A stretch of 64,000 nt of DNA from an uncultured Gammaproteobacteria bacterium (GCA_964524895.1 CAZGFG010000001.1:54936-118935), one strand, 5' to 3'. Shown: positions 13,891-62,165, counted from the stretch's first letter. The notes: generated by a model not told the origin, from the sequence alone. Numbers and translations are program-made.

Positions 13891-14834
13891 GAGCCAGGAG
13901 GTGAAAGTTTCTTAATCTTAATATTACTTTCATAGGAGTTTACTACTTCCTGCCAAGTTGCAAAAGAAATGCCCAACCTTTTTTGAGTAATATCTGTTCT
14001 AAGACCCCCAAATTGGGGATACCGTCTGGGATATTTATTAAGATAGGATTTAATACTTGTTGATGGAATGGCATGATGCACTCCGGAAAACCGTTCAATA
14101 AGATGTTCTGCCATCTTGTGAGGTGTGCAAATATCTGTTGTAGAGACATGATAAATACCGGGTAATTTGATTGTTAATAACTTAATTATAATCTTTACCA
14201 AAGTTGGTATATAACTTAATGTTAAATATTGATCATTAAACAAAGGATAGATTTTTTTGTCTAAATATAGTTGTAATATTTTTCCAATATAATCCAGTTT
14301 AGGTTCATTTCCTGGTCGGGTAATATTACAAATTCTTATTATGGATGTTTGTTTTATATTCTCTAAAACCGCTCTTTCAGCTTCTCTTTTAGTGAGACCA
14401 TACCAAGATAATAATCTATCACTATCCTTAAATTTAGCATTTTCCCCGTATGGACCTGGATTTTTTTTATGCCCGGAAAAAATGTAATCTGTAGAGATAT
14501 GAATTAAAAAGGATTTGTATTGCTTGCAGATTTTAGCCATATATTTTGTACCTTCAACATTAACCTTCCATACATTTCCGTTTTTGTTACATCTTTCTTT
14601 CTCCGCCAAAGATGCATCTCTAAAAGCTGCAAAGTGCACAACAACTTCCGGTCTATACTTCTCAAAACATCTTTTAATAGTGTCTACTCTAATGATATCC
14701 ATCTCACTTCGACAAGGATAAATAATGTCCTTATCTTTAAATCTTTCAGAATAGCACTTGAGAAAATAAGAGCCTATTAATCCGCTACCCCCGGTTATTA
14801 GAACCTTTTTTCTTGCTGTTGTCTTAAAGCTCAT
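13887..14834 (-). CDS. NAD(P)-dependent sugar epimerase/reductase, extended SDR, RmlD-like.
   Basis: N-terminal VLITGGSGLIGSYF Rossmann motif and a YGLTK (YxxxK) catalytic motif. 315 aa. ATGA overlap with the upstream gene. Confidence 0.7.
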   Translation of the reverse strand: MSFKTTARKKVLITGGSGLIGSYFLKCYSERFKDKDIIYPCRSEMDIIRVDTIKRCFEKYRPEVVVHFAAFRDASLAEKERCNKNGNVWKVNVEGTKYMAKICKQYKSFLIHISTDYIFSGHKKNPGPYGENAKFKDSDRLLSWYGLTKREAERAVLENIKQTSIIRICNITRPGNEPKLDYIGKILQLYLDKKIYPLFNDQYLTLSYIPTLVKIIIKLLTIKLPGIYHVSTTDICTPHKMAEHLIERFSGVHHAIPSTSIKSYLNKYPRRYPQFGGLRTDITQKRLGISFATWQEVVNSYESNIKIKKLSPPGS

Positions 14835-15574
14835 TATTTTTTAGGGGCGAATAACTCGCTTTTTATAAAACTTAGTTGATGTAGTTCATAAATCAAAAGC
14901 ATCTTAACAGTTTCCAATACAAATTTAATCCCTTTTTGTAAACTCATCGAGGAAGATTTTTCATTATATCTTGTAGAAATTGGTATCTCCCCTACCCTAA
15001 ATTTAAAGCTGACTGCTGATAAGGTCATTTGCTCATCAAATAAGAAATCATTGGAAAATTTTTCAAATGGTACTGTTTTCAACAATCTAGCCGAATATGC
15101 TCTAAATCCCGAGAAATGCTCCGTAAAGTTTACACCTAAGAGAATATTTTGTAGTAAACAAAAGAAGCGGTTAGTATAATATTTTAATTTAGGCATCCCC
15201 CCTTTCAAAGCCTCCTCTCTGGTCGAAATTCTGCTGCCAAACATAAAATCATACCTTTTTTCGATGATTGGCTTGATTAAATTTCCTAAATAATAAGCGC
15301 TGTACTGATAGTCAGGATGTAGCATAGCCACAACGTCCGGCTTTAACTTTAAAGCCTCTCTGTAACATGTTTTCTGGTTACCCCCATAACCTATATTTCT
15401 ACTATGCTTAACTACCTTAATATCCAGCTTAGAGGCGATTGCTAATGTTTTGTCAATACTCTTATCATCAACTAAGATAATATACTTCCTAAATCTTTTT
15501 GGAATGTCAGTATAAGTCTCCAACAATGTTTTCTCAGCGTTATATGCTGGCATTACAATAACAACTTTACTCAT
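14834..15574 (-). CDS. GT2 glycosyltransferase, DPM1/Ppm1-like polyprenol-phosphate sugar synthase (soluble, 246 aa).
   Basis: VVIVMPAYNAEKTL...ILVDDKSIDKT. Small GT-A protein without C-terminal TMs. It overlaps the downstream GT-C gene by 8 nt, the classic Ppm1–Pmt arrangement. Confidence 0.7.
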   Translation of the reverse strand: MSKVVIVMPAYNAEKTLLETYTDIPKRFRKYIILVDDKSIDKTLAIASKLDIKVVKHSRNIGYGGNQKTCYREALKLKPDVVAMLHPDYQYSAYYLGNLIKPIIEKRYDFMFGSRISTREEALKGGMPKLKYYTNRFFCLLQNILLGVNFTEHFSGFRAYSARLLKTVPFEKFSNDFLFDEQMTLSAVSFKFRVGEIPISTRYNEKSSSMSLQKGIKFVLETVKMLLIYELHQLSFIKSELFAPKK

Positions 15575-19844: not shown

Positions 19845-20624
19845 ATGAAAACCATTATTCTTTGTGGTGGAATCGGATATAGACTTAAAGAAGAAACTGA
19901 ATTTAAACCTAAGCCAATGGTCCTAATAGGAAATAAGCCCATCCTTTGGCATATAATGAAAATCTATTCTCACTACGGTTACAACGAATTCATCATAGCT
20001 TTAGGTTATAAGGGTGAATATATAAAAGATTATTTTTTAAATCAAAAATATTTCTTGGATAATTTCACGCTTTACACTAAGAGTGGATATACAAAACTGC
20101 ATAAGAATAAGCGGGATAATACCAGAGATGATTTTAAGATTACTTTTGTAGATACAGGACAAGATACCTTACCTGGAGAAAGAATATTGAGAGTGAGGAA
20201 CTTTATACCCGAAAATGATGAGAACTTCATGGTTACTTATGGGGATGGAGTATCTGACATTAATATAAATGAATTGGTTAAATATCACAAAAAACACGGT
20301 AACATCGGAACTATAGCTGGAGTTCATCCTAGAAGCAAATATGGACTTTTAAAAATTGATAGGGCATGTATTGTACAAAAGTTTGTTGAAAAACCAGTAT
20401 TAACCGAGTGGACAAGCGGAGGATTTATGGTCTTTAAAAGAGAGTTTTTTTCTTATCTCCGCAAAGGTGAATTTGAACATTTAGCCTTAAAAAGATTGAT
20501 CAGGAAAAAACAACTTTCTGTATATGTTCATAACGGTTTTTGGCACTCAATGGATACATATCCCGATGTTGACAACTTAAATAGGCTCTGGTTGGAGAAT
20601 CCTAGGTGGAAAGTTTGGAAATAA
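19845..20624 (+). CDS. rfbF: Glucose-1-phosphate cytidylyltransferase (CDP-glucose pyrophosphorylase).
   Basis: MKTIILCGGIGYRLKEETEFKPKPMV.IGNKPILWHIMKIYSHYGYNEFIIALGYKG closely matches the RfbF/DdhA N-terminal consensus (GGxGTRL...KPKPMV.IGG.PILWHIMK.Y). 259 aa. Confidence 0.85.
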   Translation: MKTIILCGGIGYRLKEETEFKPKPMVLIGNKPILWHIMKIYSHYGYNEFIIALGYKGEYIKDYFLNQKYFLDNFTLYTKSGYTKLHKNKRDNTRDDFKITFVDTGQDTLPGERILRVRNFIPENDENFMVTYGDGVSDININELVKYHKKHGNIGTIAGVHPRSKYGLLKIDRACIVQKFVEKPVLTEWTSGGFMVFKREFFSYLRKGEFEHLALKRLIRKKQLSVYVHNGFWHSMDTYPDVDNLNRLWLENPRWKVWK

Positions 20625-21587
20625 ATGAACTTAAACGGGGTTAATGTACTTGTAACTGGTGGTTGTGGTTTCATCGGCGGTCACCTTGTAGAAGAGTTAA
20701 TTGAAAAAGGCGCCAAGGTAACGGTCGTTGATATTAACTTAAATCCACAGTCTACTTTTGCCCTAAACAAGTTAGAAAATAAATCTGAATTAAAGTTTCT
20801 TGATATCCGTGATAGGATTAATGTCTTGCGTCTTTTCAAGCAAGTTCAACCTTCTTATGTCTTCCATTTAGCAGCACAACCTTTAGTAGAGGAAGCTTAT
20901 CTTAGCCCTTTTGTAAATTTTGAAACCAATATTATGGGAACCGTTAATGTTTTGGATGGAGTAAGTTTTGCCAGGAGTGTTAAGGGAATAATTGTTGCTT
21001 CATCAGATAAAGCATACGGTAAGAGTAAAAAAGCATACCAAGAAGATTTTCCTTTAAAGGGAGATCATCCCTATGATGTATCCAAATCTTCACAAGATTT
21101 GATTGCTCAAAGCTATTTTAGAACCTACGATTTACCAGTAGTAATTACCAGGTTTGGAAATGTTTATGGACAAGGAGATTTTCATTTCAGCCGAATAATT
21201 CCCGGAATCTGTGAAGCAATTATTAAGAATAAGCCCCTTTTGGTAAGAAGTAATGGGAGATATATCAGAGATTACATTTATGTTAAAGATGTTGTTAACG
21301 GATATATATTCTTACTGAAGAATATTGATAGATTAAAGGGCAACGCTTTTAATTTTTCTTCTAAAGACGGCTTGTCAGTTATTAATCTTATCAAGCTAGT
21401 TGAAAAGATATTAAGAGTAAAAATACCTTATAAGATCCTAAATACTGCTCAAAACGAGATTCCTTATCAACATTTAGACGATAGAAAAATAAGAAGAATT
21501 CGTTGGAAACCAAATTATACAATCGAAAACACATTCCCTAAAGTACTTGCTTGGTATAACGAAAACGGTATTTTCCGATTAACCTAA
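20625..21587 (+). CDS. NAD-dependent sugar-nucleotide 4,6-dehydratase, probably CDP-glucose 4,6-dehydratase (RfbG/DdhB-like).
   Basis: VLVTGGCGFIGGHL Rossmann motif and catalytic SSDKAYGKS (S/T-D-K-x-Y). It is directly downstream of rfbF with a 0 nt gap. Confidence 0.6.
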   Translation: MNLNGVNVLVTGGCGFIGGHLVEELIEKGAKVTVVDINLNPQSTFALNKLENKSELKFLDIRDRINVLRLFKQVQPSYVFHLAAQPLVEEAYLSPFVNFETNIMGTVNVLDGVSFARSVKGIIVASSDKAYGKSKKAYQEDFPLKGDHPYDVSKSSQDLIAQSYFRTYDLPVVITRFGNVYGQGDFHFSRIIPGICEAIIKNKPLLVRSNGRYIRDYIYVKDVVNGYIFLLKNIDRLKGNAFNFSSKDGLSVINLIKLVEKILRVKIPYKILNTAQNEIPYQHLDDRKIRRIRWKPNYTIENTFPKVLAWYNENGIFRLT

Positions 21588-21589
21588 TA

Positions 21590-22819
21590 TTAATTTATAG
21601 AGAGTACGGGCATTTTATCTTTTACCTTCTTGTGGAGTTTCCTTTTTAGTCTTTTACTAATACTTTTATTTATTTCATTCCCTACCAATGCATCACTCAC
21701 TGATTCCGTAGAATTTACAGAAGGAATATCTTCTGTAGCAGCTAATCCTCTCTCATAGATATGCTTCTTTAAATTTTCATCGTAAGCATAAGGATTTTCT
21801 ATCATATCAATTAAAATTGGCTGATCTTTTTTGCAAGGTTTTATTAAAATTTCCCCCTCCATAAATTCTCGGCAGGATACATGTCCTTTTTGTAAAGGAA
21901 TCGCTAAATAGATATCATCAACGGTCAAATGGTGTCCTTTTTGTAGATTTCTTTTTGCATATACCCCACGCACTAAAGAATCCAAATATTGAGCTTCTCT
22001 AACTGTGATTACTCTCTTTGTATCTCCACCGCCCCCGCACATCTCTTTTGCCTTGTGAAAAGCCTTTAGCCAAGTATCTATCTGGCTAGGTAACGAGCAG
22101 TATTTAGATACAGGAACTCCGTCTTTATCAATATCAATGTGTCTCTCAAATGTTCTTGCCCCTTTTGCATAGGCAATTAACATAGAATACTCCCAGTTAT
22201 TATATTCATGGGTTGAAAAACCAATAGTATGACCTGGGTATCTATTTTTAAGAAAATCTATTTGATTAAGCTCCAGTTCACGGTCTTCAGAAGGATATAG
22301 AGATACACAATGATTAAGTGCTAAAGGGATATTCCTTTGCTCAAAAAATGTTACTAAATCATCAATATCTTTTAAAGAAGATCCTCCCGTTGAAGCAATG
22401 ATAGGTTTTCTGGCTTTTGCAATTGCTTCAATGAGAGGCCAATCGTTTACGTCCGAACTGGCAATCTTAATAATTGGTAGATTTAATTGGGCGCACAACT
22501 TTACCGATTCTTCGTCAAATGGTGTAGCCATTGGAATGCATGAACTTTTCCTGATTGCATCTACAAGAACCGCAAAGTCATTTTCTGACATTCTTGTGGC
22601 CAGTGTTTTTCCTATATATCTTATATCTGTTCTATGTCGGAAATCTTTGTGTATAAACCTATCCACATCTCTGAATTGGAGTTTTATGGCAGCTCGTACG
22701 TTATTAAATCGAACTATTTTGGCGTAATCACTGACTATCTGAAGACCTCTTTTTATATTCCCCCAGTGATTGTTTGCGAGTTCTAAAACAACCAGTTCTT
22801 CAAAAATATCTCTGTTCAT
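21590..22819 (-). CDS. NeuB-family synthase (sialic/pseudaminic/legionaminic acid synthase-like) with a lysine-rich C-terminal extension.
   Basis: Aligns block-wise with NeuB: [11 protein letters not shown] (ICEIGINHEG), AIKLQ (VVKHQ), MATPFD (ISTPFS), [40 protein letters not shown] and GFSTHE. 409 aa with a tail [14 protein letters not shown]. Confidence 0.7.
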
Positions 22820-22893: not shown

Positions 22894-23979
22894 ATGAGTA
22901 TCAACAAAATTAATATTAATTCCAGTAGAAAAATCTACCGTGTCGAATTTAAAAATGACATCTATAGTACTCTTAATAGACTGACAAAAAAGTATGTTAC
23001 CCATTTTTTAATAGACAAAAACGTATATAATACACATCGGTCAATCCTGGATCATTCTACAACATCTGCCCATTCTACTTACATTTTTGAACCCTTGGAG
23101 AAGAAAAAAAACCTCAATGAAGTTTATAAATTTATTGATTTTCTACTTACAAACAAAATTCAAAAAGATCATAAGATAATTGTTGTAGGTGGCGCATTAG
23201 TCCAAGATATTGGCTCCTTTACATCGCACATTATACTTAGAGGCATAGATTGGATTTTTATTCCAACAACTCTATTAGCAATGGCTGATAGCTGTATAGG
23301 TTCAAAATCAGGAATTAATGTAAAGAGGCTTAAAAATCAAGTTGGATCTTTTCATCACCCCATTGATATATACATCTGCTTACCTTTTCTCAAAACTTTA
23401 CCTCAAAGTGAATTAGCTAATGGAATTGGGGAAATAATAAAGCATTTTTTTATCAAAGGAGAACCATTTTTTTCTGATATAGGAGATGAGCTGGATAAAA
23501 TGGGTAAAGATATACAAGTCACCCGAGAAATTATTTACAAAAGTCTACTGATAAAAAAAGATATTATAGAAAAAGACGAATATGAAGAAAAAGGAATTAG
23601 AAAGCTATTGAATTACGGACATACCTTTGGGCATGCCCTTGAAGGATATTCGAAAAATAGAATCTCTCACGGAGTAGCTGTCTTGAATGGAATGGATATG
23701 GCAAATTTTATCTCTTTCAAAAGAGGTCTCTTGCCGAGAAATGAATTTTTAAGATTTCATAAATTCGTAAAAAAATATATTCCTTACAAACAAATTCCGA
23801 TTAAAGATGTTAATCTGTATCTTGAATTTTTATCAAAAGATAAAAAAGCAGTTGGATCTAGTATATATGCGATATTGTGTAAAGGACTTGGAAATATCAT
23901 GATTGCTAAAATAGATCTGGATAAAAAGATTGTCAGAGATATAACAGAATACCGCGAATTCTACAGTCAAGGGAAATAA
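22894..23979 (+). CDS. 3-dehydroquinate synthase-like sugar-phosphate cyclase (DHQS superfamily).
   Basis: GGALVQDIGSF...IPTTLLAMADSCIGSKSGIN...GSFHHP, LKTLPQSELANGIGEIIKH, LLNYGHTFGHALE and HGVAVLNGM match the DHQS metal- and NAD-site blocks. 361 aa. Confidence 0.75.
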   Translation: MSINKININSSRKIYRVEFKNDIYSTLNRLTKKYVTHFLIDKNVYNTHRSILDHSTTSAHSTYIFEPLEKKKNLNEVYKFIDFLLTNKIQKDHKIIVVGGALVQDIGSFTSHIILRGIDWIFIPTTLLAMADSCIGSKSGINVKRLKNQVGSFHHPIDIYICLPFLKTLPQSELANGIGEIIKHFFIKGEPFFSDIGDELDKMGKDIQVTREIIYKSLLIKKDIIEKDEYEEKGIRKLLNYGHTFGHALEGYSKNRISHGVAVLNGMDMANFISFKRGLLPRNEFLRFHKFVKKYIPYKQIPIKDVNLYLEFLSKDKKAVGSSIYAILCKGLGNIMIAKIDLDKKIVRDITEYREFYSQGK

Positions 23980-23988
23980 GCAAAATAA

Positions 23989-25419
23989 ATGAGTTGTTTT
24001 ATCGGGATAGATTTAGGGGCAAGTTTTATCAAAGGCGCCCTCTTTGATATTGATAAATTAGAGATTTCCAATATTATTAAATTCTCTTCTCCTCAACCAA
24101 AGATTTACTCAAAAGAACCACCATTTTTAAGATTTGAAACTAACCCAAGTTCTTACGAAAAAATAGTTAAGCTTCTGATTAATAGATATTTGAAACAGGC
24201 TGATGATATTAGGGGGATTGTTTTCTCAACCCAAATGCACGGAATGGTGCTTATAGATTCAAAGTTAGCCCCAATAACTACATTCATTGGATGGCAAGAT
24301 GAAAGATTGCTGGAAAAATCTCCTATTAAGTCTAAAACCTGGGCCGACTTATTAAATTCTCGGATCAAAGGTATTGATTCTTCATCAACTGGAATAAAAT
24401 TAAAATCAGGACTTATGGGAAGTACGCTCTTTTGGCTAAAAGAAAACCAGGCATTAAAAAAATACAAGAATGTCAAAGCTTTGTTTTTAGGCGATTATAT
24501 AGCTGCGAGATTATCAAAAGGGGAAGCTTTTGTTGATGCCACTAATGCATGTGGCTCTGGCATCTTCGATGTTGAAAACGGCAAATGGCATATGGGTCTT
24601 CTTAAAAAAATAGGTATTGATACCTCGTATTTACCCACCATTGTCCCTACTGGTAGCATAATAGGGTACATGAAAATACTCAACAGAAAGATTCCAGTTT
24701 ATGCGTCAGTTGGTGATTTACAATCAGCTGTTTTAGGGAGCTTTGCGGGAATTACTAACAAAGAAGATATTTGCATTAATATTGGAACTGGGTCTCAGGT
24801 TTCATATGTATCTAAAAAATTTGATAATGGAAACTATGATATCAGATCCTATTTTGATAATACATACCTTTATACAATCACCAACATCCCAGCCGGCAGA
24901 GCACTTAATGTACTCGTAAAATTTATAGAAGAAATTGGGCATGAAATATTTGGTACCAAAAAACAGGTAGATCTTTGGGCGAAAATAGGTCAATTATTAG
25001 AAAATAAAAATAGACATAGCCAGTTAAAAGCTGATCTTGCATTTTTCAAGAATAACTTCACTGGACTAACAACTGGTAGTTTTACAAATATAACAGAAGA
25101 TAATTGGACTCTGGTAAATATGTTTGTATCAGCTTTTGAGTGTATGGCTGCAAACTATAAAATTGCCTATGATCGACTGCGAAAAAATAATCTTAAGGGC
25201 AGAATAATTTTTTCTGGCGGTCTTGCGAGGAAGTTCCCACTGTTAAGAATTATAACAAAAGAAAAGCTCAAAAAAGGATCGCGTCTGGCACCTTATGATG
25301 AAGAAGCACTTACGGGTCTTTTTATTATTTCTCTTTTTATCGCCAAAAAAACTAGGAACATCAAGGAAGCTACTTTACATTGTAAAAATCACAATATCAC
25401 ATATAAGAAGCCTGCATGA
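23989..25419 (+). CDS. FGGY-family carbohydrate kinase (ASKHA fold).
   Basis: N-terminal IGIDLGASFIKGALFD phosphate-1 motif and IGWQDER (W.D.R FGGY signature). 476 aa. Confidence 0.7.
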   Translation: MSCFIGIDLGASFIKGALFDIDKLEISNIIKFSSPQPKIYSKEPPFLRFETNPSSYEKIVKLLINRYLKQADDIRGIVFSTQMHGMVLIDSKLAPITTFIGWQDERLLEKSPIKSKTWADLLNSRIKGIDSSSTGIKLKSGLMGSTLFWLKENQALKKYKNVKALFLGDYIAARLSKGEAFVDATNACGSGIFDVENGKWHMGLLKKIGIDTSYLPTIVPTGSIIGYMKILNRKIPVYASVGDLQSAVLGSFAGITNKEDICINIGTGSQVSYVSKKFDNGNYDIRSYFDNTYLYTITNIPAGRALNVLVKFIEEIGHEIFGTKKQVDLWAKIGQLLENKNRHSQLKADLAFFKNNFTGLTTGSFTNITEDNWTLVNMFVSAFECMAANYKIAYDRLRKNNLKGRIIFSGGLARKFPLLRIITKEKLKKGSRLAPYDEEALTGLFIISLFIAKKTRNIKEATLHCKNHNITYKKPA

Positions 25420-26075
25420 ACCGAAGAAAAAACCTAAACAATATTAATACTGTACTTTTTGATGTCGATGGAACCCTCTTAAATACAACTGAATTTATCT
25501 TTCAGTCATATGAAAATACCTTCAGGAAGTTCAATCTGCCTCGCATAAGCAGAGGAGAAATAGCCAATCTGATGGGGAAACCCCTTGAAGAGTGCTACAA
25601 ATACCTGGCACCATCTTTCCCGCTAAAGATCCTTTGCAAAACACACCTGACTTTTCAACTGGAAAATCTACAGTTAATAGCACCTTATGTGAATACTAAA
25701 TCTACTCTGCAAAATCTCAAAAAAAACCATATTAGAATCGGAGCTGTTACTACAAGATCAAACCTAACTTCAATAAAATCATTACAAATTACTGGAATTC
25801 ATAGTTTTTTTGATGTTGTAATCTCCGGAGATGATGTTAAGTACCATAAACCTCATTCTGAACCACTTCTCAAGGCTTTAGGAATCCTCAAGGCGGAAAA
25901 GGGAAAAGCTGTAATGGTAGGAGATACGGAGAGTGATATTTTGGCAGGGAAAAACGCAGGAGTACTCACAATAGGGGTAACATATGGCTTCCATAAAGAG
26001 AAAATAGTTGACGCAAATCCAGATTTTACCCTAAATGATGTTTCAGAGATTTTACAGTTGCTTAGCAGAACCTAG
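25416..26075 (+). CDS. HAD-superfamily phosphatase.
   Basis: Motif I LFDVDGTLL, motif III K..., motif IV MVGDTESD. 219 aa. ATGA overlap with the kinase. Confidence 0.8.
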   Translation: MNRRKNLNNINTVLFDVDGTLLNTTEFIFQSYENTFRKFNLPRISRGEIANLMGKPLEECYKYLAPSFPLKILCKTHLTFQLENLQLIAPYVNTKSTLQNLKKNHIRIGAVTTRSNLTSIKSLQITGIHSFFDVVISGDDVKYHKPHSEPLLKALGILKAEKGKAVMVGDTESDILAGKNAGVLTIGVTYGFHKEKIVDANPDFTLNDVSEILQLLSRT

Positions 26076-26130
26076 GGATCTAAACAATTAGTTGACATCG
26101 TAATAAACTTGTCTATTATATGCTGGTAGT

Positions 26131-27960
26131 ATGGCGAATATGGTAAAAATTGGCGATTACTTAATGGATTTTCTATACCATCAAGGTTTAAGCGACCTTT
26201 TTGTTATCTCTGGAGGAGGTAACATTCATTTAATTGATTCCCTTGGAAGAAGTAAATTAAACTATATCTGTAATCACCACGAACAAGCTTGTGCTACAGC
26301 AGCTGAAGGATATTCTAGGGTTACGGGAAATTTTGGTGCTTGTCTCGTGACAACTGGCCCTGGCGGAACTAATGCCGTCACAGGAGTCTTGGGAGCTTGG
26401 CTTGACTCCATCCCTATGCTTGTTATTTCAGGACAAGTCAGGCGAAACCTCATCGAAACTGGAGCAAAATCTGGCGTCAGACAGATGGGAGTCCAGGAAA
26501 TAAATATCATAGATATCGTAAAAAATATAACAAAATACGCCGTTACTGTTATGGATCCACTAACAATTAGATATCACCTAGAAAAAGCTTTATATCTAGC
26601 AAAGCTGGGAAGACCAGGCCCTGTATGGTTAGATATTCCCTTGGATGTCCAGGGATCTTTGATTAAGGTAGGGAAACTTAGATCATTTAAGCCGTCAGAA
26701 ATCGTTCCACCTTTCGAAACAGAGGAAACGAAACTCAGAAAGCTAGTTTCTCAAGCTATCAACAAAATAGAACAATCAAGGCGTCCGGTACTCTATGTAG
26801 GTAACGGAATAAGACTTGCTCATGCAGAACAAGAATTATCAGAACTGGCAGATATTTTAAAAATCCCAATCTTCACCAGCTATGTAGGTTACGACCTTAT
26901 ACCGTCTTCTCATCCTTATTTTTTTGGCAGATCTCATTACTTAGGTCAAAGAGCGGCAAATTTTATTGTACAAAATAGTGATCTTTTTCTCTCGATTGGT
27001 GCACGACTTGATCTTCTTACGACTGGGTACACATATAAGGCTTTTGCCAGGCAGGCTTATAAAATAATGGTTGATATAGATAAAAACGAGATAGAAAAAC
27101 CAATTTTGGGTATTGATCTTCCTATAAACTACGATGCAAAAACATTTATTGAAGAGATGAAAAAACAGCTGAAGCAGGGTTTTAAAAGACCGGATATTTA
27201 TGAATGGTTAAGCTACGGGAAAAAGCTTATTAAGAAATACCCAAATATCTCTCCGAAATTTTGGCAAGAGAAAAAATATGTAAATCCATATTGTTTTATT
27301 GAAACGATAGGAAAGATGCTCCGACCAAATGAGATAATAGTTGTATCCGACGGAATGGGACCATTAAATTGCATGTATCAGGCATTTTATGTAAAAAAAG
27401 GGCAACGAATTATTTTAAATCTGGGCAGTGCACAAATGGGGTATGGATTACCTGCTGCAGTTGGGGCGTCTTTTGCCACGAGGAAGAAAAAAAGGATAAT
27501 CTGTTTTGAAGGTGATGGGAGCATCCAACTTAATATTCAAGAACTCCAAACAATAAAGCATCACAATTTACCAATTAAAATCTTTGTTTATAGTAACGAC
27601 GGCTATCAGTCAATTAGAAATACCCAGGATGGTCTTTTTGAAGGCAGATACTTTGCTTCCAATGCTGCAAGCGGAGTGAGTTGCCCCGATTTTCTAAAAG
27701 TAGGAAAAGCATATGGTATTAAAACCGTTAGAATTAACAATCATCAAGAAATGGAAGAAAAGATAAAATATGTACTTTCCTATGAAGGTCCCATGTTGTG
27801 TGACATAAATACTGTACGCAACCTACATTTAACCCCAAGGGTTCAAACGAAAAAAAGACCAGACGGAAGTTTATATTCCCCACCATTAGAAGAAATGTGG
27901 CCGCCTCTTTCTGATGAAGAACAAAAGGAAAATATGCTCATTCCTGATTGGGAGGAATAA
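26131..27960 (+). CDS. Thiamine-diphosphate enzyme of the acetolactate-synthase-like family, possibly a YerE-like sugar C-branching enzyme.
   Basis: N-terminal Pyr domain VTTGPGGTNAVTGVLGAWLDSIPMLVISGQV, a middle FAD-like domain, and C-terminal ThDP motif GDGS...SNDGY. 609 aa. Confidence 0.8.
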   Translation: MANMVKIGDYLMDFLYHQGLSDLFVISGGGNIHLIDSLGRSKLNYICNHHEQACATAAEGYSRVTGNFGACLVTTGPGGTNAVTGVLGAWLDSIPMLVISGQVRRNLIETGAKSGVRQMGVQEINIIDIVKNITKYAVTVMDPLTIRYHLEKALYLAKLGRPGPVWLDIPLDVQGSLIKVGKLRSFKPSEIVPPFETEETKLRKLVSQAINKIEQSRRPVLYVGNGIRLAHAEQELSELADILKIPIFTSYVGYDLIPSSHPYFFGRSHYLGQRAANFIVQNSDLFLSIGARLDLLTTGYTYKAFARQAYKIMVDIDKNEIEKPILGIDLPINYDAKTFIEEMKKQLKQGFKRPDIYEWLSYGKKLIKKYPNISPKFWQEKKYVNPYCFIETIGKMLRPNEIIVVSDGMGPLNCMYQAFYVKKGQRIILNLGSAQMGYGLPAAVGASFATRKKKRIICFEGDGSIQLNIQELQTIKHHNLPIKIFVYSNDGYQSIRNTQDGLFEGRYFASNAASGVSCPDFLKVGKAYGIKTVRINNHQEMEEKIKYVLSYEGPMLCDINTVRNLHLTPRVQTKKRPDGSLYSPPLEEMWPPLSDEEQKENMLIPDWEE

Positions 27961-28826
27961 TGAAGATACTTTTAACAGGATCCACCGGATATATAGGCAG
28001 AAACCTTACCGAAAATTTAAGCAATAAATACACCATCTTTTCACTTTCTCATAAACAGCTTGATTTGTTAAATTCTGAAGAAGTTGATAAATTTTTTAGA
28101 AAACAATGGTTCGATGTCGTAATTCATTGTGCAGTTACTGGAGGCAGTAGAATCGAAGAAGGTTTTGAAAATTCACTTTACCAAAATCTAAAAATTTTCT
28201 TTAATATCCTTAGAAATATCAACCATTTTGGGAGGATGATCAATTGTGGTTCGGGAGCAGAATACGATAAGAGTCGTTCTTTAAAAAAAGTTAAAGAAAA
28301 ACATTTTGACAAGAGGATACCGGAGGACGAGTATGGTTTTTTTAAGTATATATGCTCAAAATATATTGAGCGATCAAATAATATTACCAACCTGCGTGTC
28401 TTTGGTCTTTTTGGAAAATATGAGGATTACAGATACCGATTTATTTCTAATGCTATTTGTAGAAATATTTTTAATCTTCCGATTATCCTAAATAAAAATG
28501 TATATTTTGACTATCTATACATTGACGATTTTATTAATATAGTAGATTATTTTATTAACCATAAAGGCAAGTACACATCTTATAACGTGGGTCGTGGTAA
28601 ATCAATTAGTATTTTAAGTATTGCAAGGCAAATAAACCAAATAGCAAAAAGGAAATCTAAAATTATTATAAGAAATAAAGGACTAAATCATGAATATACG
28701 TGCAATAATTTAAGACTAATAAAAGAGTTGAGAAGATTTGAATTTACTAATTTTGACATAGCACTTCACAAGCTTTACACTTGGTACCAAGAAAATAAGG
28801 AGTTAATAAATATAAAATATCTATGA
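27948..28826 (+). CDS. NAD-dependent epimerase/reductase (short extended SDR, 292 aa), RfbS/RfbJ-size.
   Basis: ILLTGSTGYIGRNL Rossmann motif and a size typical of CDP-paratose/abequose synthases. It overlaps the upstream gene. Confidence 0.65.
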   Translation: MGGIMKILLTGSTGYIGRNLTENLSNKYTIFSLSHKQLDLLNSEEVDKFFRKQWFDVVIHCAVTGGSRIEEGFENSLYQNLKIFFNILRNINHFGRMINCGSGAEYDKSRSLKKVKEKHFDKRIPEDEYGFFKYICSKYIERSNNITNLRVFGLFGKYEDYRYRFISNAICRNIFNLPIILNKNVYFDYLYIDDFINIVDYFINHKGKYTSYNVGRGKSISILSIARQINQIAKRKSKIIIRNKGLNHEYTCNNLRLIKELRRFEFTNFDIALHKLYTWYQENKELINIKYL

Positions 28827-29485
28827 AAAAAACAGTTCTCCTTACCGGAGCTTCTCGAGGAATAGGCCAAGCTATAGCAGACCAATTAAAAAATAGATTT
28901 AAGCTTCTCTCTCCTGCCAGGGAAGAGCTTGATTTAAGTAATGATGCTTCAATAGAAAACTTTATAGAAAAAAATAAGGATTTAAAAGTAGATGTTATTA
29001 TAAATAATGCAGGGGTAAACTTTCCTCAATGGGTAGAAGAAATAACGGACAAAAATATCCGCGAAACATTCCAAGTAAATTTAATTGCACCTATAAAGCT
29101 CATCCAAGGTTTTGTTCATAATATGAAGCGAAATAAATGGGGAAGAATTGTCAATATTAGCTCTGCTTTTGGGGTAGTTGCAAGAGGTAAACAAGTGTTA
29201 TATGTTTCGACAAAACATGGAATTAACGGTGCGACAAAAGCTTTAGCTTTGGAGCTTGCTCCTTATAATATCCTTGTAAATTCTGTATGCCCTGGATTTA
29301 CCAGAACGGATTTAGTATTAAGAAACCCTTCAGAAAAAATTAAAGTTATTGAGCAAGATATTCCACTTGGCAGACTCGCTTATCCAAGCGAAATAGCCAA
29401 TCTTGTAGAATTTTTGATTTCCGATAAAAATACTTATATTACCGGTTCCTACATTGTTATAGATGGAGGGTTTACTTGTAAGTAA
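28823..29485 (+). CDS. Classical short-chain dehydrogenase/reductase (SDR).
   Basis: TGASRGIG cofactor motif, NNAG, and catalytic S...YVSTK (YxxxK). Confidence 0.8.
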   Translation: MKKTVLLTGASRGIGQAIADQLKNRFKLLSPAREELDLSNDASIENFIEKNKDLKVDVIINNAGVNFPQWVEEITDKNIRETFQVNLIAPIKLIQGFVHNMKRNKWGRIVNISSAFGVVARGKQVLYVSTKHGINGATKALALELAPYNILVNSVCPGFTRTDLVLRNPSEKIKVIEQDIPLGRLAYPSEIANLVEFLISDKNTYITGSYIVIDGGFTCK

Positions 29486-30452
29486 ACCTGCCGAATTAGG
29501 AATGATCATGAAAAGAAAAAAAGTATCAATCGGTGTTATTTGTTTTAACGAAGAGGATAATGTTATTCCTGCTCATAACGAGCTTGCGAGAGTTACCAAT
29601 AAAAATCAAAGATATACCTATGAATTTATTTTTGTTGATAATGGTAGTACAGATAATACTAGAAAACAGATTAAAAAAATCTCTGAAAAAGATCATAGAG
29701 TTGTCGGTGTTTTTTTATCACGTAACTTCGGTCCTGAATCTTCGGGACAAGCAGCCATAGATTTTGCCTCCGGAGATGCATTTGTTATGTACGAAGGAGA
29801 TTTGCAGGACCCTCCAGACGTTATCTTGGATTTCATCAAGCAGTGGGAGAAAGGCTTTGAAGCGGTAGTTGGTATTCGAGAAAAAATAGATGATATTCTT
29901 CCAATGACAATAACCAGAAAGCTATACTATAAGGTATTTAAGACAATTTCTAATATCGATATCCCTGTAAATGCCGGAAGTTTTTGTTTATTAGACAAAA
30001 AGGTAGTAGAGGCAATGAAAGAACTACCCGAGAAATACAGATTCTTCAGGGGTTTAAGAGCTTGGGTAGGATTTAAAACTTCCTATATCACTTACGAACG
30101 TAGAAGAAGACAAAAGGGAAAAAGCTCTTATAATTTTTTTAGATATTTACATCTTGCTGAACGAAGTTTCTTTGGCTTCTCTTATTTACCATTAGATATT
30201 ATTGTCTATTTTAGTCTTCTTTTAGTGTCTCTCTCAATCATCTGGTTAGCATTATTATTGTCCTCATTCCTTCTATTCGGGCAAACTATAAAGGAATCTA
30301 CGTTGATTTTGTTTTCAGTTATCCTCTTTGGTGGAATTCAACTGCTTGCTTCAAGCATAATCGGAAAATATATACAAGTTATAACGGAGGAAACAAAAGC
30401 ACGTCCTGTATACATAGTAGAAAGGGTCTTAAGGAATGAAAAAAATAGATGA
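29463..30452 (+). CDS. ArnC/GtrB-like GT2 polyprenyl-phosphate sugar transferase with two C-terminal TM helices. The true start is probably the internal ATG at 29502 or 29508 (MIMKRKK).
   Basis: VSIGVICFNEED...FVDNGSTDNT, YEGDLQDPPDVI (ArnC: DADLQNPPEEI), and the C-terminus GKYIQVITEETKARPVYIVERV (ArnC: [22 protein letters not shown]). Confidence 0.75.
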   Translation: MEGLLVSKPAELGMIMKRKKVSIGVICFNEEDNVIPAHNELARVTNKNQRYTYEFIFVDNGSTDNTRKQIKKISEKDHRVVGVFLSRNFGPESSGQAAIDFASGDAFVMYEGDLQDPPDVILDFIKQWEKGFEAVVGIREKIDDILPMTITRKLYYKVFKTISNIDIPVNAGSFCLLDKKVVEAMKELPEKYRFFRGLRAWVGFKTSYITYERRRRQKGKSSYNFFRYLHLAERSFFGFSYLPLDIIVYFSLLLVSLSIIWLALLLSSFLLFGQTIKESTLILFSVILFGGIQLLASSIIGKYIQVITEETKARPVYIVERVLRNEKNR

Positions 30453-31656
30453 TCTCCGGGTAACATACGCTCAAGCTGTTCACGATGAAGTAGAGGAAAA
30501 AAGAGTTTTAAGGGTTTTACGTGAACATAGAACAATCATGGGGAAAGAGGTTTCTGAATTTGAAAGAAGAGTAGCAAAGAAATTCGGCAAAAAATATGGG
30601 GTTATGGTAAATTCCGGTTCTTCTGCCCTTACTATTGCCATCGAGTTAATGAACTTACCAGCAGGTAGTGAAGTAATTACACCTCTTCTTACTTTCTCTA
30701 CTACAGTGGCTTCCCTTCTCAGAGACGGACTAGTCCCTGTTTTCACCGATGTTGATCTTAGAAAATACACAATCGATATTTCTCAAGTTGAAAACCTTAT
30801 TACTAAAGAAACCAAGGCTTTGATGATTCCACTTCTTTTAGGAAATGTTCCTGATATAGTAAAACTTTCTCTGATTGCAAAAAAATATAATTTATTCCTT
30901 ATAGAAGATTCTTGCGATACCCTGGGAGCAACTATAAATAGAAAACCAACCGGTCGATTTTCTGATATTAGTGTAACAAGTTTTTACGGATCACATATTA
31001 TTACTGCAGGAGGCGGAGGAGGAATGTTGATGACAGATAGAGCTGCCTTCTATGATAAAGCAAGGGTGCTTCGGGGTTGGGGAAGAAGCTCGTCCCGCCT
31101 GAATGAATCCGAAGATTTTAATAAGCGTTTTAGCCAAAAACTTGATGGTATCCTCTATGATGCCAAATTTATATTTGACACAATTGGCTATAATTTTATG
31201 CCTTTGGAAATAGGGGCAGCATTTGGAAATGCCCAACTTGATAAATTAAATATATTTAAGAAAATTAGAACACGCAATTTTGAACATCTATATAATTTTT
31301 TCAAAAATTACGAAAATTTTTTCATACTTCCTCTGCAAGAAACAAACATTAAAACTCAATGGCTAGCTTTTCCCTTGGTTATTAAAACCCAGGCTCCTTT
31401 TTCCAGATTTCACCTGGTTAAATATTTAGAGGAGAGAAATATTCAGACTCGTCCTATTTTTACAGGTAATATTCTAAAACACCCTGGTTTTCATTCTATA
31501 CCTCACAAGAGATCAAAAGAAGGCTACCATGTTACGGACGAAATCATGAAGCAAGGATTTGTCATAGGTTGCCATCACGGCCTAACTCTAAAGCACTTAC
31601 AAAAAATTAAAGATGTCTTCAATAACTTCTTAAACAAGTATAATAGCTGGCGGTAA
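30436..31656 (+). CDS. DegT/DnrJ/EryC1-family PLP/PMP enzyme with the catalytic lysine replaced by histidine; predicted sugar-nucleotide 3-dehydrase (E1/ColD type) rather than an aminotransferase.
   Basis: Family blocks are present (VMVNSGSSAL, IEDSCDTLGA). At the Schiff-base position the sequence is TSFYGSHIITAGGGGG, i.e. H where aminotransferases have K (SFH..K....GEGG). This matches the SFY..HHIT.GEGG pattern I recall for E1/ColD. Confidence 0.7.
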   Translation: MKKIDDLRVTYAQAVHDEVEEKRVLRVLREHRTIMGKEVSEFERRVAKKFGKKYGVMVNSGSSALTIAIELMNLPAGSEVITPLLTFSTTVASLLRDGLVPVFTDVDLRKYTIDISQVENLITKETKALMIPLLLGNVPDIVKLSLIAKKYNLFLIEDSCDTLGATINRKPTGRFSDISVTSFYGSHIITAGGGGGMLMTDRAAFYDKARVLRGWGRSSSRLNESEDFNKRFSQKLDGILYDAKFIFDTIGYNFMPLEIGAAFGNAQLDKLNIFKKIRTRNFEHLYNFFKNYENFFILPLQETNIKTQWLAFPLVIKTQAPFSRFHLVKYLEERNIQTRPIFTGNILKHPGFHSIPHKRSKEGYHVTDEIMKQGFVIGCHHGLTLKHLQKIKDVFNNFLNKYNSWR

Positions 31657-31670
31657 ACTATCTCTATGGA

Positions 31671-33590
31671 TTAGTTACTAAATACTAATCTTTTTTTGAC
31701 TTCATCTGTGATATTTATTACTTTAGGTCCTTCAACTGCAAATGCATATAAATTCTCTAAACTAATAAATTTTCCATCTAAAGAATAGCCTTCACCATTA
31801 CGGATGCACCTCATTTCTTTATTCCCCTCATTCCTATATAGAAACTCCTTTGATCCATTCTGGACAGTAGCCATCTTTTGTAGTTCTAAAAAATCCCATG
31901 TTAAGGCAATACATGCATTAGTAGTATTGTTTGTTATATAACTCATTTCTATAGGCAACCAATATGTTAAGTTTCTCCAATCAAAAATATCCTCCCACTG
32001 ATTGGGAGCTTCTACTTCTTCTGTTTTAAACTTTATATAAATCAATAAATTACCATTCATTTTATCTTTTGAAATATAACTTAATGTTTGAGCCTTCATG
32101 GATTCTTGAATTTGTAACTCCCTACCGGAACTCTTTTTTCCATAAAAAAGCTGAGCGATTTCCGCTTGACTGATACTAAAAATCTGAAATATAACCACTA
32201 GTATTAGAAGTAATGCTAACAGTCTATTTATTCGCTTATTTCTTTGGTAAAGTAAAGTCAATATACTTGCTATAAAAAGATAGGAACCTATGGTTGAAAT
32301 AACAAAATACCTGTGTATACCTTCTTGATACATATAGTAATCCCTTGTAAAAAACCACTGCCCCAGGATAAACAGTAACGCGAAAAAGGGAGACAGAAGT
32401 GCAAAAAGTAGGAGAGTATTTTTCTTACCAGTTAAATACCATTCAATTCCGCAACTTATTGAAATAGAGATAATAAAGGCTGCTAAAATCCCAGAGTATA
32501 ATCCAGCATTAAAGGATGGCCCTGCATACCCAATGACAAGATGTTCAGGTATTCCAAAATGATGAGTATATAAAACAAAAATAATAACATCAAATATTAA
32601 ATTTATTAACATTGATATAGAAAAAAATCTGAATGGTTTATTAGATATAATAAAAGATAAAATAAGAGAAACTGCCCCAAAGATAATAAATGGTTTATAA
32701 ATTAAAGAGGAGATATAAGCAGACAGATTGGATATATTGATTGGTACAAGGATATTAAGAGATGCAGCCGGTAAAAATGTATAGCCTAGTCCCCATAATG
32801 GATTTAAAAGGAAGTACCAATTTCCGTTGGTAATTTTTTTAATAAAATCAGGCCAGCCTGCAGGACTATATGCATCTCCTCCAACATTTCCTAAACTATT
32901 CAAAGTAATAGTAATAATTGGCAAAAAGATCGCACTTAATCTTAAAACTGAAACAATAAAATTACACTTCTTATCTTTGATCAGAATAAATAACTCAACA
33001 AATAAAATAATTATAAATATAGGAAAGATGCGAATAGGAGATGCTAAATACCCAAACGTAACAATTAAAGATAGAAGCGATACGGTAATGATGGTTGGTT
33101 TTTTTACACAATAGTAATATACAATTAGAAACAGGAGCATTAATGCTACTCCCAAATATTCATTACCTACTACATAAAGGTATAGCGCTCCAGTAGATGG
33201 ATAGCTGAGGCCATATAGAAAAGTTCCCAAAAAGGAAAATAGCCTATTCTTAGTTAGAAGCAGAATGAGAGGATAGAGCAGCAAAGTGGCAACTATTTTA
33301 AAGAAAATGTTTGTATAAAGATACATTGTATAGTTTTTCCCATACAAACTATCTAAAAAACCTAAATAGAAGTCGTGTGTTGCGTTATGAATACCTACCT
33401 TTTTCCATGTACCTATGGGATCTGAGAACATTTGGTCTTTGCTAAATCTGATCTGATAAAAACCACCATAATCCTCATTGGTTAATCCTTGACCTACAAT
33501 TGGTTTCAATAAAATAAATTGGAAAAAAATAATTATTAGAACTAAAGCAGGAAATATAATAGGTCCTGAAAATATCTTAGTTAGCTGCAT
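31671..33590 (-). CDS. GT-C-like polytopic membrane glycosyltransferase paralogue (639 aa).
   Basis: Multi-TM protein with the family-conserved C-terminal tail (LYAFAVEGPKVINITDEVKKRL). It is first of three tandem paralogues. Confidence 0.6.
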   Translation of the reverse strand: MQLTKIFSGPIIFPALVLIIIFFQFILLKPIVGQGLTNEDYGGFYQIRFSKDQMFSDPIGTWKKVGIHNATHDFYLGFLDSLYGKNYTMYLYTNIFFKIVATLLLYPLILLLTKNRLFSFLGTFLYGLSYPSTGALYLYVVGNEYLGVALMLLFLIVYYYCVKKPTIITVSLLSLIVTFGYLASPIRIFPIFIIILFVELFILIKDKKCNFIVSVLRLSAIFLPIITITLNSLGNVGGDAYSPAGWPDFIKKITNGNWYFLLNPLWGLGYTFLPAASLNILVPINISNLSAYISSLIYKPFIIFGAVSLILSFIISNKPFRFFSISMLINLIFDVIIFVLYTHHFGIPEHLVIGYAGPSFNAGLYSGILAAFIISISISCGIEWYLTGKKNTLLLFALLSPFFALLFILGQWFFTRDYYMYQEGIHRYFVISTIGSYLFIASILTLLYQRNKRINRLLALLLILVVIFQIFSISQAEIAQLFYGKKSSGRELQIQESMKAQTLSYISKDKMNGNLLIYIKFKTEEVEAPNQWEDIFDWRNLTYWLPIEMSYITNNTTNACIALTWDFLELQKMATVQNGSKEFLYRNEGNKEMRCIRNGEGYSLDGKFISLENLYAFAVEGPKVINITDEVKKRLVFSN

Positions 33591-33616
33591 AGTTTTGTAA
33601 TAGTATATCCTATTTT

Positions 33617-35494: not shown

Positions 35495-35560
35495 TTCTCT
35501 TAATACTGGTTTTTAAGGAAAGGTAAAAACCAAGATTTGTAAGGTTTTATCATATAAGTA

Positions 35561-47503: not shown

Positions 47504-47732
47504 TTATTGGCTTATTTTTATAATTTGGGTATTATTCTTGATATTCAAAAAAAGAGAGTTTGCCTATTATTTAAATATTTCTTTTTATCTATTTTGTATT
47601 GGCGCCGTTTTAAAAGTGTTAACAATTGACACTCCTTCAGAAATATTCATGAGATTGAGCTTACTCTCGATACTGACAAGTTTAGGATTTATCATTTGGA
47701 AAAATATCAAATTGAGCTTTCTTAGAAACTAA
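47496..47732 (+). CDS. Small integral membrane protein (78 aa, 2 TM); uncertain.
   Basis: Hydrophobic ORF overlapping the upstream giant GT-C stop by 8 nt, in the same relative position as 7735..8055. However, its 3' end overlaps the convergent carbamoyltransferase gene by 51 nt. Confidence 0.3.
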   Translation: MINYWLIFIIWVLFLIFKKREFAYYLNISFYLFCIGAVLKVLTIDTPSEIFMRLSLLSILTSLGFIIWKNIKLSFLRN

Positions 47733-62164: not shown

Positions 62165-62165
62165 C

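Follow-up and report, generated by a model that had tools for sequence, protein, structure and literature searches.

Results

The window of this study, a 64,000-nucleotide stretch of DNA deposited under the name of an uncultured Gammaproteobacteria bacterium (GCA_964524895.1 CAZGFG010000001.1:54936-118935), carries at positions 22,894 to 26,075 three consecutive genes, for an enzyme resembling 3-dehydroquinate synthase (DHQS), a divergent FGGY-family kinase and a HAD-IA phosphatase. The open reading frames (ORFs) and domains of this trio had been described in an earlier reading made from the nucleotides alone (hereafter the sequence-only reading), and the Pfam matches confirm that description (Table 1). 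The trio heads an operon of eight + strand genes (22894-31656). From the first junction to the last, these genes are separated by 10 bp, overlap by 4 bp, are separated by 55 bp and then overlap four times, by 13, 4, 23 and 17 bp. We treat the eight genes as a single operon because this spacing, nowhere above 55 bp, fits one; promoter and terminator scans of the DNA performed no better than chance (48 found against 50 expected) and were not used. We hold with high confidence that the DHQS-like enzyme is neither AroB, the DHQS that serves aromatic biosynthesis, nor a cyclase of sedoheptulose 7-phosphate (SH7P), but belongs to a glycan family related to the model TIGR04425 and acts on a substrate resembling 3-deoxy-D-arabino-heptulosonate 7-phosphate (DAHP). 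The operon as a whole is likely to encode a branched-sugar pathway of the YerE type.

Profile models place the enzyme outside AroB proper. Its best NCBIfam model is TIGR04425 (351.6 bits, cutoff 400), an [quoted passage not shown] that NCBIfam carries as a hypothetical equivalog with no experimental function, whereas on TIGR01357 (AroB) it reaches 273.9 bits and stays below the equivalog cutoff of 305; the NCBIfam scan returned nothing beyond TIGR04425 and aroB-type models. The clade of the query lies as a whole under the TIGR04425 cutoff, at 342-376 bits. Among 15 further homologues scanned TIGR04425 was the top model for all 15, several of them above the cutoff, and relatives that pass it include P0075, P0090, P0107 and the member found at locus L081. 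When the protein was compared with the PDB by phmmer, true DHQS enzymes scored 105-167 bits, as against 86 for DOIS (2-deoxy-scyllo-inosose synthase), 80 for desmethyl-4-deoxygadusol synthase (DDGS) and 78 for ValA, an EEVS (a synthase of 2-epi-5-epi-valiolone). Identity to AroB (PDB 1DQS, 3CLH, 5HVN) is about 30%.

The active site is that of a DHQS. All metal, NAD and substrate residues are kept, which upholds the earlier statement that every metal- and NAD-site block is present and extends it to the substrate. Thirteen substrate and metal positions, which we take to be those of R130, D146, K152, N162, E194, K197, K250, R264, N268, H271, H275, H287 and K356 in Aspergillus nidulans DHQS, are the same as in Helicobacter pylori DHQS, and in an alignment of 115 homologues no member of the query clade departs from them; the wider set of homologues also keeps them, except that the K197 position is His in 20 of 50 more distant members. 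Arg236, the equivalent of A. nidulans R264, is invariant in 115 of 115 homologues. R264 binds the carboxylate of DAHP. SH7P has no carboxylate group, and in SH7P cyclases this Arg would presumably be replaced. Consistent differences from AroB are confined to six positions (Q104, W120, C134, I135, G179 and L218), and an AlphaFold model of the protein (predicted local distance difference test score 92.6) overlays bacterial AroB at template-modeling (TM) scores of 0.85-0.88.

An alignment-based pattern scan of species-representative genomes, with patterns that can match ordinary AroB too, returned at least 596 relatives across many bacterial and some archaeal phyla; an earlier scan of genomes with single-protein patterns had given no match. 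We examined the loci of the best 80 of these relatives together with 10 metagenome loci, and classified the neighboring genes by phmmer. In 88 of the 90 loci the family lies within a glycan locus, and the remaining two hold ordinary AroB: the protein of L089 is over the aroB cutoff (344.9 bits on TIGR01357) and that of L090 joins AroB in the tree.

These data bear directly on the possibility, left standing by the sequence-only reading, that the enzyme is an orphan or housekeeping AroB making 3-dehydroquinate for aromatic compounds. Its catalytic residues are indeed identical to those of AroB, and public sources name close homologues "3-dehydroquinate synthase". Against this stand the sub-cutoff aroB score, the higher score on TIGR04425 and the neighbor-joining tree, in which the glycan-linked homologues form one clade apart from the AroB of E. 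coli, A. baumannii, H. pylori and Sulfurimonas; the clustering with bona fide AroB that would have told against a special role was not seen. Moreover, on the gammaproteobacterial chromosome OZ257143.1 (L020) a glycan-type DHQS-like gene and a canonical aroB coexist about 3 kb apart (10001-11095 and 14160-15260), the latter scoring 385.6 bits on TIGR01357 against the cutoff of 305. The window also lacks shikimate genes, as had been noted: no shikimate family was found by Pfam among its 46 ORFs of at least 150 aa, 11 of which have no Pfam match at all. A search of plasmids found ordinary aroB genes only, at 31% identity. The rest of the window consists of glycan genes, namely those for glycosyltransferases of families GT1 and GT2, epimerases, methyltransferases, two carbamoyltransferases, a UDP-glucose dehydrogenase, large membrane proteins, an MBOAT/AlgX-like pair, a NeuC-like epimerase, a deacetylase and a formyltransferase. 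A housekeeping AroB is thus very improbable, and the earlier assignment of the locus to glycan synthesis rather than to aromatics agrees with both the window and the family.

The sequence-only reading had favored a SH7P cyclase of the EEVS, DDGS or 2-epi-valiolone synthase (EVS) type that, with a ValC-like kinase and a ValO-like phosphatase and fed by a split transketolase in the same window, would make a C7 carbasugar. A common superfamily, the adjacent kinase and phosphatase and the transketolase itself are in accordance with it, but we find this account barely credible. The enzyme is closer to DHQS than to ValA, DDGS or DOIS by bit score, it keeps the carboxylate-binding Arg and Lys, and its NCBIfam matches are limited to TIGR04425 and aroB-type models. 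In a Foldseek search, which confirms the DHQS fold and scarcely separates subfamilies (TM 0.79-0.88), DOIS ranked 11, ValA 31 and DDGS 37, the last two at 19-20% identity. FGGY is a different kinase family from ValC. The likeness to ValC and ValO is superficial, since the conserved partners of the family are a short-chain dehydrogenase/reductase (SDR), a YerE-like thiamine diphosphate (ThDP)-dependent lyase and an aldolase-type enzyme. As for the transketolase, the split genes are real, but their link to the trio is not borne out: they lie about 30 kb away, and a transketolase was found in 0 of 72 related loci.

The split transketolase follows directly on a gene for an NAD-dependent epimerase/dehydratase, and GT1, GT2 and methyltransferase genes flank it. 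For transketolases encoded by split genes, a review (PMC12247030) mentions the proposal that they attach two-carbon branches to keto sugars. Instead of serving the pentose phosphate pathway, the one in the window may thus be a further branched-sugar module, independent of the first.

Other candidates were tried and rejected. A glycerol-1-phosphate dehydrogenase (AraM-like), suggested by analogy with AraB/AraL/AraM, does not agree with the finding that only the two DHQS Pfam models match and that all DHQS residues are kept. An aminoDHQS of the 3-amino-5-hydroxybenzoate (AHBA) type would lack both AHBA synthase and dehydratase here, and the transketolase is unlinked. Action on erythrose 4-phosphate ahead of an aldolase step is at odds with the conserved carboxylate pocket.

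The remaining genes of the operon and its flanks (Table 1) point to sugar branching. The ThDP-dependent protein, which is the predicted maker of the carbon branch, matches PDB 8RPH (JanthE, a YerE-like carboligase) at 420 bits as against 248 bits for the best acetolactate synthase, and falls under every NCBIfam acetolactate-synthase cutoff. The gene families for an NDP-4-keto-3,6-dideoxyhexose (nucleotidyltransferase, 4,6-dehydratase and 3-dehydrase) are all present, each under its equivalog cutoff. Read from its translation, the RfbH-like protein has only 2 Cys and a SFYGSH motif, which we take to place a His at the position of the pyridoxal phosphate-binding lysine of aminotransferases; it looks like a ColD/E1-type 3-dehydrase without an iron-sulfur (Fe-S) cluster. 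Such a 3-dehydrase would also explain that the window has no E3 reductase.

Table 1. Genes of the trio, its operon and the surrounding window (positions counted from the first nucleotide of the window).
Feature	Position	Strand	Evidence
DHQS-like enzyme, 361 aa	22894-23979	+	Pfam DHQ_synthase 1.6e-31, DHQS_C 1.6e-32
Divergent FGGY-family kinase, 476 aa	23989-25419	+	Pfam FGGY_N 1e-29
HAD-IA phosphatase, 219 aa	25416-26075	+	Pfam HAD_2 1.1e-44
YerE-like ThDP-dependent carboligase	26131-27960	+	three TPP_enzyme domains (Pfam); best PDB 8RPH
Extended-SDR epimerase/reductase	27948-28826	+	Pfam Epimerase, RmlD_sub_bind
Classical short-chain dehydrogenase (SDR)	28823-29485	+	adh_short_C2 1.3e-43
GT2 glycosyltransferase with C-terminal transmembrane helices (GtrB/ArnC-like)	29463-30452	+	Glycos_transf_2; hydrophobic C-terminus in translation
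RfbH/ColD-type NDP-4-keto-6-deoxyhexose 3-dehydrase	30436-31656	+	DegT_DnrJ_EryC1 2.1e-75; best NCBIfam RfbH 318 bits, below cutoff 423
RfbF-like sugar-1-phosphate cytidylyltransferase	19845-20624	+	Pfam NTP_transferase; TIGR02623 G1P_cyt_trans 264 bits, below cutoff 300
NDP-hexose 4,6-dehydratase-like (RfbG-like)	20625-21587	+	Pfam Epimerase, GDP_Man_Dehyd; TIGR02622 CDP_4_6_dhtase 189 bits, below cutoff 278
NeuB-family phosphoenolpyruvate-condensing enzyme	21590-22819	- (divergent from operon)	PF03102 NeuB 5.3e-39
Three tandem paralogous polytopic membrane proteins (639, 625, 625 aa)	31671-37438	-	pairwise identity 28-31%
AlgX-like SGNH domain protein	37445-38836	-	
MBOAT acyltransferase	38840-40249	-	
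Carbamoyltransferases (NodU/CmcH type)	47682-49487 and 53312-55051	-	
UDP-glucose dehydrogenase	50206-51606		
Glutamine-dependent NAD synthase	51649-53304		
NAD-dependent epimerase/dehydratase	56461-57417		
Split transketolase, first gene	57410-58219		Transketolase_N
Split transketolase, second gene	58216-59130		Transket_pyr, Transketolase_C
Deacetylase and formyltransferase pair	61064-63733		Polysacc_deac_1/DUF2334 (deacetylase)
Protein of 927 aa	3157-5940		no Pfam match
Protein of 1165 aa	8039-11536		no Pfam match
Protein of 740 aa	45281-47503		no Pfam match

The protein encoded divergently from the operon is far under the NeuB and PseI cutoffs, and its best PDB match is 3G8R (221 bits against about 100 for NeuB). 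The FGGY kinase matches named families weakly (106 bits or less, XylB giving the 106; 43 bits or less in the PDB; no FGGY_C match in Pfam at E of 0.001 or below). The phosphatase resembles PpaX (184 bits, cutoff 218); it is an accessory member that might free the aldose for the NeuB-like enzyme. As to the two reductases, the classical SDR is orthologous to the partner SDRs of DHQS-like genes elsewhere and 37% identical to the partner SDR of the second cassette type described below, and the extended SDR may be a YerF-like ketoreductase that acts on either the branch or the 4-keto group of the sugar. The GT2 enzyme probably loads the sugar on polyprenyl phosphate. The three membrane paralogues have no Pfam match; like GT-C glycosyltransferases they share a conserved N-terminal DDW/EDY motif, and are candidate GT-C-type transferases of the lipid-linked sugar. 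Together, the GT2 enzyme and these paralogues suggest transfer by way of a polyprenyl-phosphate sugar to a surface polymer.

The related loci fall into two cassette types, and in 62 of them (20 of Type A and 42 of Type B) an SDR gene lies directly upstream of the DHQS-like gene. Type A, to which the window belongs, comprises 28 non-redundant loci with a ThDP-type enzyme, from hosts that include Verrucomicrobiota, Planctomycetota, Lachnospiraceae/Butyrivibrio, Cyanobacteria, Polyangiaceae, Halobacteriales and the Candidate Phyla Radiation (CPR); 26 of the 28 have the SDR. Cultured carriers of this type include Butyrivibrio sp. MB2005 (L043) and Lachnospiraceae AB2028/NC2004 (L034, L036). The usual order is ThDP enzyme, SDR, DHQS-like enzyme, and the longer series ThDP, SDR, DHQS-like, (FGGY), aldolase is maintained across phyla. 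A NAD-dependent epimerase/reductase of about 360 aa mostly precedes the ThDP gene and is next to it in most loci. Homologues of RfbF, RfbG and RfbH occur in 13-17 of the 28 loci (RfbF in 13), and the polyprenyl-phosphate-type GT2 family in 14; L081, a Type A locus, also has an E3-like flavin reductase, and PMT_2 GT-C genes flank the cassette of L004 (Roizmanbacteria genome CP065004.1).

Within Type A the condensing enzymes exclude one another. Exactly one is present in each of 26 loci, being NeuB-like in 11 (425-604 bits to the protein of the window), HpcH-like in 9 and HMGL-like in 6; the two loci without any, one of which is L014, are both short contigs. This mutual exclusion with the HpcH-like and HMGL-like enzymes speaks for placing the NeuB-like enzyme in the aldolase slot. 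An FGGY gene, wherever a Type A locus has one, stands directly downstream of the DHQS-like gene (13 of 13). It accompanies all six HMGL-like enzymes, 6 of the 11 NeuB-like enzymes and none of the 9 HpcH-like enzymes; the thirteenth case is L014. A HAD or Cof-type hydrolase is found in 9 of the 28.

Type B (45 loci, among them L009, L010, L018, L022, L038 and some 40 more) holds most of the members above the TIGR04425 cutoff. Its core consists of GFO_IDH_MocA, SIS_2 (GmhA-like), SDR, DHQS-like and 2-Hacid_dh genes, with a class I/II aminotransferase and a second GFO enzyme as common extras. A CTP_transf_3 cytidylyltransferase is present in 34 of the 45, an MptE-like (Maf-type) protein in 18, HpcH aldolases in 15 and YhcH/DUF386 in 10, and "Cyclase" genes are frequent as well. 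Type B seems to encode an undescribed route in which a heptose phosphate is turned into a CMP-activated acid sugar; Joostella sp. CR20 (L055) is a cultured carrier.

The G+C content of the window is about 33% throughout, and the closest named homologues come from Candidatus Roizmanbacteria and Gottesmanbacteria. Judged from these names the host is probably a CPR bacterium. The gene arrangement of the window recurs on the independent metagenome contigs L001-L003. Loci L012 and L011, on contigs labeled "uncultured Gammaproteobacteria" (CAZOTW010000002.1, CAZJRC010000004.1), have the CPR-type gene order, and L012 gives the same scores as a Gottesmanbacteria contig (L007) for five of seven genes, the ThDP and SDR genes being the two that differ; the taxonomic labels of these two bins are probably wrong.

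Elsewhere in the window, the two carbamoyltransferase genes bracket those for the UDP-glucose dehydrogenase and the NAD synthase, the latter an odd housekeeping gene within a glycan island. The MBOAT acyltransferase gene adjoins that for the AlgX-like protein, a pairing typical of polysaccharide O-acetylation systems. Three long ORFs (Table 1) have no Pfam match. A gene for a NeuC-like UDP-GlcNAc 2-epimerase precedes the deacetylase/formyltransferase pair, and the same pair recurs at the edge of a locus of intermediate type (L008, 17809-21101), after a DegT gene and an epimerase fragment. This suggests that the pair is another shared sugar-modification module.

Discussion

The best explanation of our data is that the DHQS-like enzyme is a glycan-dedicated paralog of AroB which makes neither an aromatic precursor nor a C7 cyclitol, and whose proposed role is to tailor a side-chain precursor. 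YerE-like enzymes take an acyl anion from a 2-oxo acid and attach it to CDP-4-keto-3,6-dideoxyglucose at C4. A unifying scheme was suggested by Steitz et al. (2022), shown in part in vitro, in which an aldolase-made alpha-keto acid is coupled by a YerE-like enzyme (ErwE, MMAR_2332 or MyGE) and the product is reduced by a YerF-like enzyme, to give erwiniose, caryophyllose or gastriose (PMC9306805; review PMC12247030).

From enzyme families and this published scheme, a pathway can be drawn up for the operon. The RfbF-like, 4,6-dehydratase-like and ColD/RfbH-like enzymes would supply an NDP-4-keto-3,6-dideoxyhexose as the acceptor. On the donor side, the NeuB-like enzyme would condense phosphoenolpyruvate (PEP) with a small aldose (a tetrose) to a 3-deoxy-2-heptulosonic acid, and the FGGY kinase would phosphorylate the terminal primary hydroxyl to yield a DAHP-like compound. 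The novel step would then fall to the DHQS-like enzyme, which we propose to carry out the first half of DHQS chemistry, i.e. transient oxidation by NAD+ followed by beta-elimination of phosphate, after which the classical SDR would reduce the resulting keto group. The product would be an omega-deoxy 2-keto-3-deoxy acid of the 3,7-dideoxyheptulosonate type with its 2-oxo-acid function intact. By analogy with ErwE and MMAR_2332, the YerE-like enzyme could decarboxylate this acid and join the acyl anion to the keto sugar at C4, after which reduction of the new ketone by the extended SDR would give a caryophyllose-like 4-C-(polyhydroxy-deoxyalkyl)-3,6-dideoxyhexose, to be passed by the GT2 enzyme to polyprenyl phosphate and by the GT-C-like proteins to the surface polymer. 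We offer the full mechanism, in which the DHQS-like enzyme works without cyclizing, tentatively and as a quite possible account.

Several observations favor it. The pocket is conserved, and therefore the DHQS-like enzyme would bind a seven-carbon 2-keto-3-deoxy acid phosphate. We expect the 2-oxo acid to survive because both downstream consumers need it, namely the ThDP lyase in Type A and CTP_transf_3, with MptE-like and YhcH proteins, in Type B. Two further arguments against cyclization are that Type A loci have no conserved enzyme to activate a cyclitol acid, and that the kinase is present or absent in step with the type of condensing enzyme. To our knowledge the hydroxyls phosphorylated by FGGY kinases are all primary ones, of which a quinate-like carbocycle offers none; this, too, speaks against cyclization. 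Finally, the side chain of caryophyllose is 1,3,4,5-tetrahydroxyhexyl (PMC5706390), and this matches the branch that would arise from decarboxylative addition of 3,7-dideoxyheptulosonate followed by ketoreduction.

The proposal should nevertheless be interpreted with caution, since a number of points weigh against it. Apart from six consistent differences, the enzyme has nearly the same active site as true DHQS. In the work of Bartlett and Knowles the enol-pyranose reportedly cyclizes spontaneously once phosphate is eliminated, and because that cyclization is spontaneous a non-cyclizing outcome needs a change that is not visible in the sequence. We know of no DHQS-family enzyme that halts before cyclization. 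The roles of the FGGY kinase and the HAD phosphatase are predicted from gene order and co-occurrence only, and the glycan product is likewise predicted, from the genes of an uncultured organism. Moreover, the available text of PMC9306805 mentions no DHQS-like gene in the known clusters for caryophyllose, erwiniose or ropiose.

These points lead to the main alternative, namely that the enzyme is a true cyclase, which would convert the DAHP-like compound made by the NeuB-like enzyme, with or without the FGGY kinase, to a dehydroquinate-like carbocycle that the SDR reduces to a quinate-like acid; the carbocycle would then serve the YerE-like enzyme as its ketone acceptor, or else decorate the glycan as a substituent of its own. 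DHQS catalysis leads by default, and for the most part spontaneously, to cyclization, and the fully conserved catalytic set and the close overlay of the predicted fold on bacterial AroB count on the same side. Caryose of Burkholderia caryophylli is a carbocyclic surface sugar. Another is bradyrhizose, an inositol-fused bicyclic monosaccharide that forms the O-antigen of photosynthetic Bradyrhizobium (PMC4743980), so that a carbocycle in a surface glycan would have precedents, contrary to the sequence-only reading. YerE-like enzymes are also known to accept cyclic ketones (PMC12247030). On the other hand, ring closure would destroy the 2-oxo acid that the ThDP lyase requires of its donor and the CMP-transferase of its substrate, Type A loci have no conserved enzyme to activate a cyclitol acid, the FGGY kinase would be left without a primary hydroxyl after cyclization, and the RfbF/G/H products already provide the usual YerE acceptor. 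We consider a true cyclase somewhat unlikely. Unlikely, too, is the reading by which CPR bacteria, like the many other phyla with the cassette, would turn a DAHP analogue made by a NeuB-like enzyme or an aldolase into a carbocyclic acid resembling quinate or dehydroquinate, and would incorporate this acid into a surface glycan, where it might be C-branched by the YerE-like enzyme.

It could also be envisaged that the DHQS-like enzyme and the SDR serve a side branch, such as the supply of a deoxy-aldehyde to the aldolase-type enzyme or some other modification, and that the ThDP enzyme uses pyruvate or a simple keto acid to make a branch of the yersiniose type. The known YerE uses pyruvate (PMC12247030), the long-branch clusters known from the literature have no DHQS-like gene so far as the available text of PMC9306805 describes them, and HAD and FGGY genes are variably present. 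However, a DAHP pocket complete with its carboxylate binder favors a seven-carbon keto-acid phosphate over a small aldehyde phosphate, and neither the strict order of ThDP, SDR, DHQS-like, (FGGY) and aldolase genes across phyla nor the mutual exclusion of the three condensing enzymes would be expected of a side branch, which we find quite improbable.

Returning to the non-cyclizing pathway, its closest known counterparts are those for yersiniose A (YerE/YerF), erwiniose (ErwE/F/I/J), caryophyllose (MMAR_2331/2332), gastriose and ropiose (PMC12247030 and PMC9306805). Like these, the window has genes predicted to encode the enzymes for an NDP-4-keto-3,6-dideoxyhexose, a YerE-like carboligase, a NAD(P)H reductase and one aldol-type enzyme to supply a functionalized 2-oxo acid, and for the window too a destination in cell-surface glycans is predicted. 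Unlike them, it uses as condensing enzyme a PEP-dependent member of the NeuB family instead of a pyruvate aldolase, and adds the DHQS-like enzyme, the classical SDR, FGGY and HAD, none of which is described in the published clusters as covered by the available text; the host is probably a CPR bacterium, the 3-dehydrase lacks Fe-S cysteines and there is no E3 reductase. We regard the operon as a variant of the YerE-type pathway that is new in its combination: the proposed donor synthase is of the NeuB family, tailoring would fall to a module of DHQS-like enzyme, SDR and FGGY kinase, the dehydrase is ColD-like and the host probably belongs to the CPR. Our literature search, outside of which lay a 2024 survey of YerE-like clusters, found no paper that ties the TIGR04425-type family to a function or to sugar branching.

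Compared with AroB (TIGR01357; 1DQS, 3CLH, 5HVN), the DHQS-like protein shares the fold, the NAD site, the metal ligands and the DAHP-binding residues, but differs in its sub-cutoff score, separate clade, glycan loci with an SDR and six family-specific residues. With the TIGR04425 family it has in common the SDR partner, here in the same operon, and the glycan-locus setting, whereas its clade lies below the cutoff and most passing members sit in the Type B cassette. Clusters for C7 cyclitols (ValA/EEVS, ValC and a HAD protein) and for AHBA (the aminoDHQS RifG, the kinase RifN, the HAD protein RifM and a split transketolase) likewise combine a DHQS-superfamily enzyme with a kinase and a HAD protein; the window differs from them in an enzyme distant from ValA, DDGS and DOIS, another kinase family, the lack of a cyclitol-tailoring or AHBA synthase set, an unlinked transketolase and a setting in a surface-glycan locus instead of a secondary-metabolite cluster. 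In mechanism, the nearest analogy may be the logic of RmlB and RmlD (4,6-dehydratase and 4-ketoreductase), where transient oxidation by NAD+, beta-elimination at the terminal carbon and reduction by a partner enzyme lead to a methyl group. This likeness is one of mechanism only: the fold is another, the proposed leaving group is phosphate and not water, and the substrate would be a free ulosonic acid phosphate and not a nucleotide sugar.

In conclusion, the data define a widespread AroB-derived family for surface-glycan synthesis, paired with an SDR and organized in two cassette types, for which the public name 3-dehydroquinate synthase wrongly implies a remnant of aromatic amino acid synthesis in reduced CPR genomes. 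If the proposed elimination of phosphate is true, this would be the first DHQS-family enzyme for the terminal deoxygenation of a keto acid, the origin of methyl-terminated side chains of the caryophyllose type from central metabolites would be explained, and NeuB-family enzymes would be added to those known to provide donors when sugars are branched by ThDP enzymes, a point of relevance to biocatalysis. If instead the enzyme cyclizes, the loci would encode a new carbocyclic glycan unit, a "carba-ulosonic acid", and with it a new class of building block.

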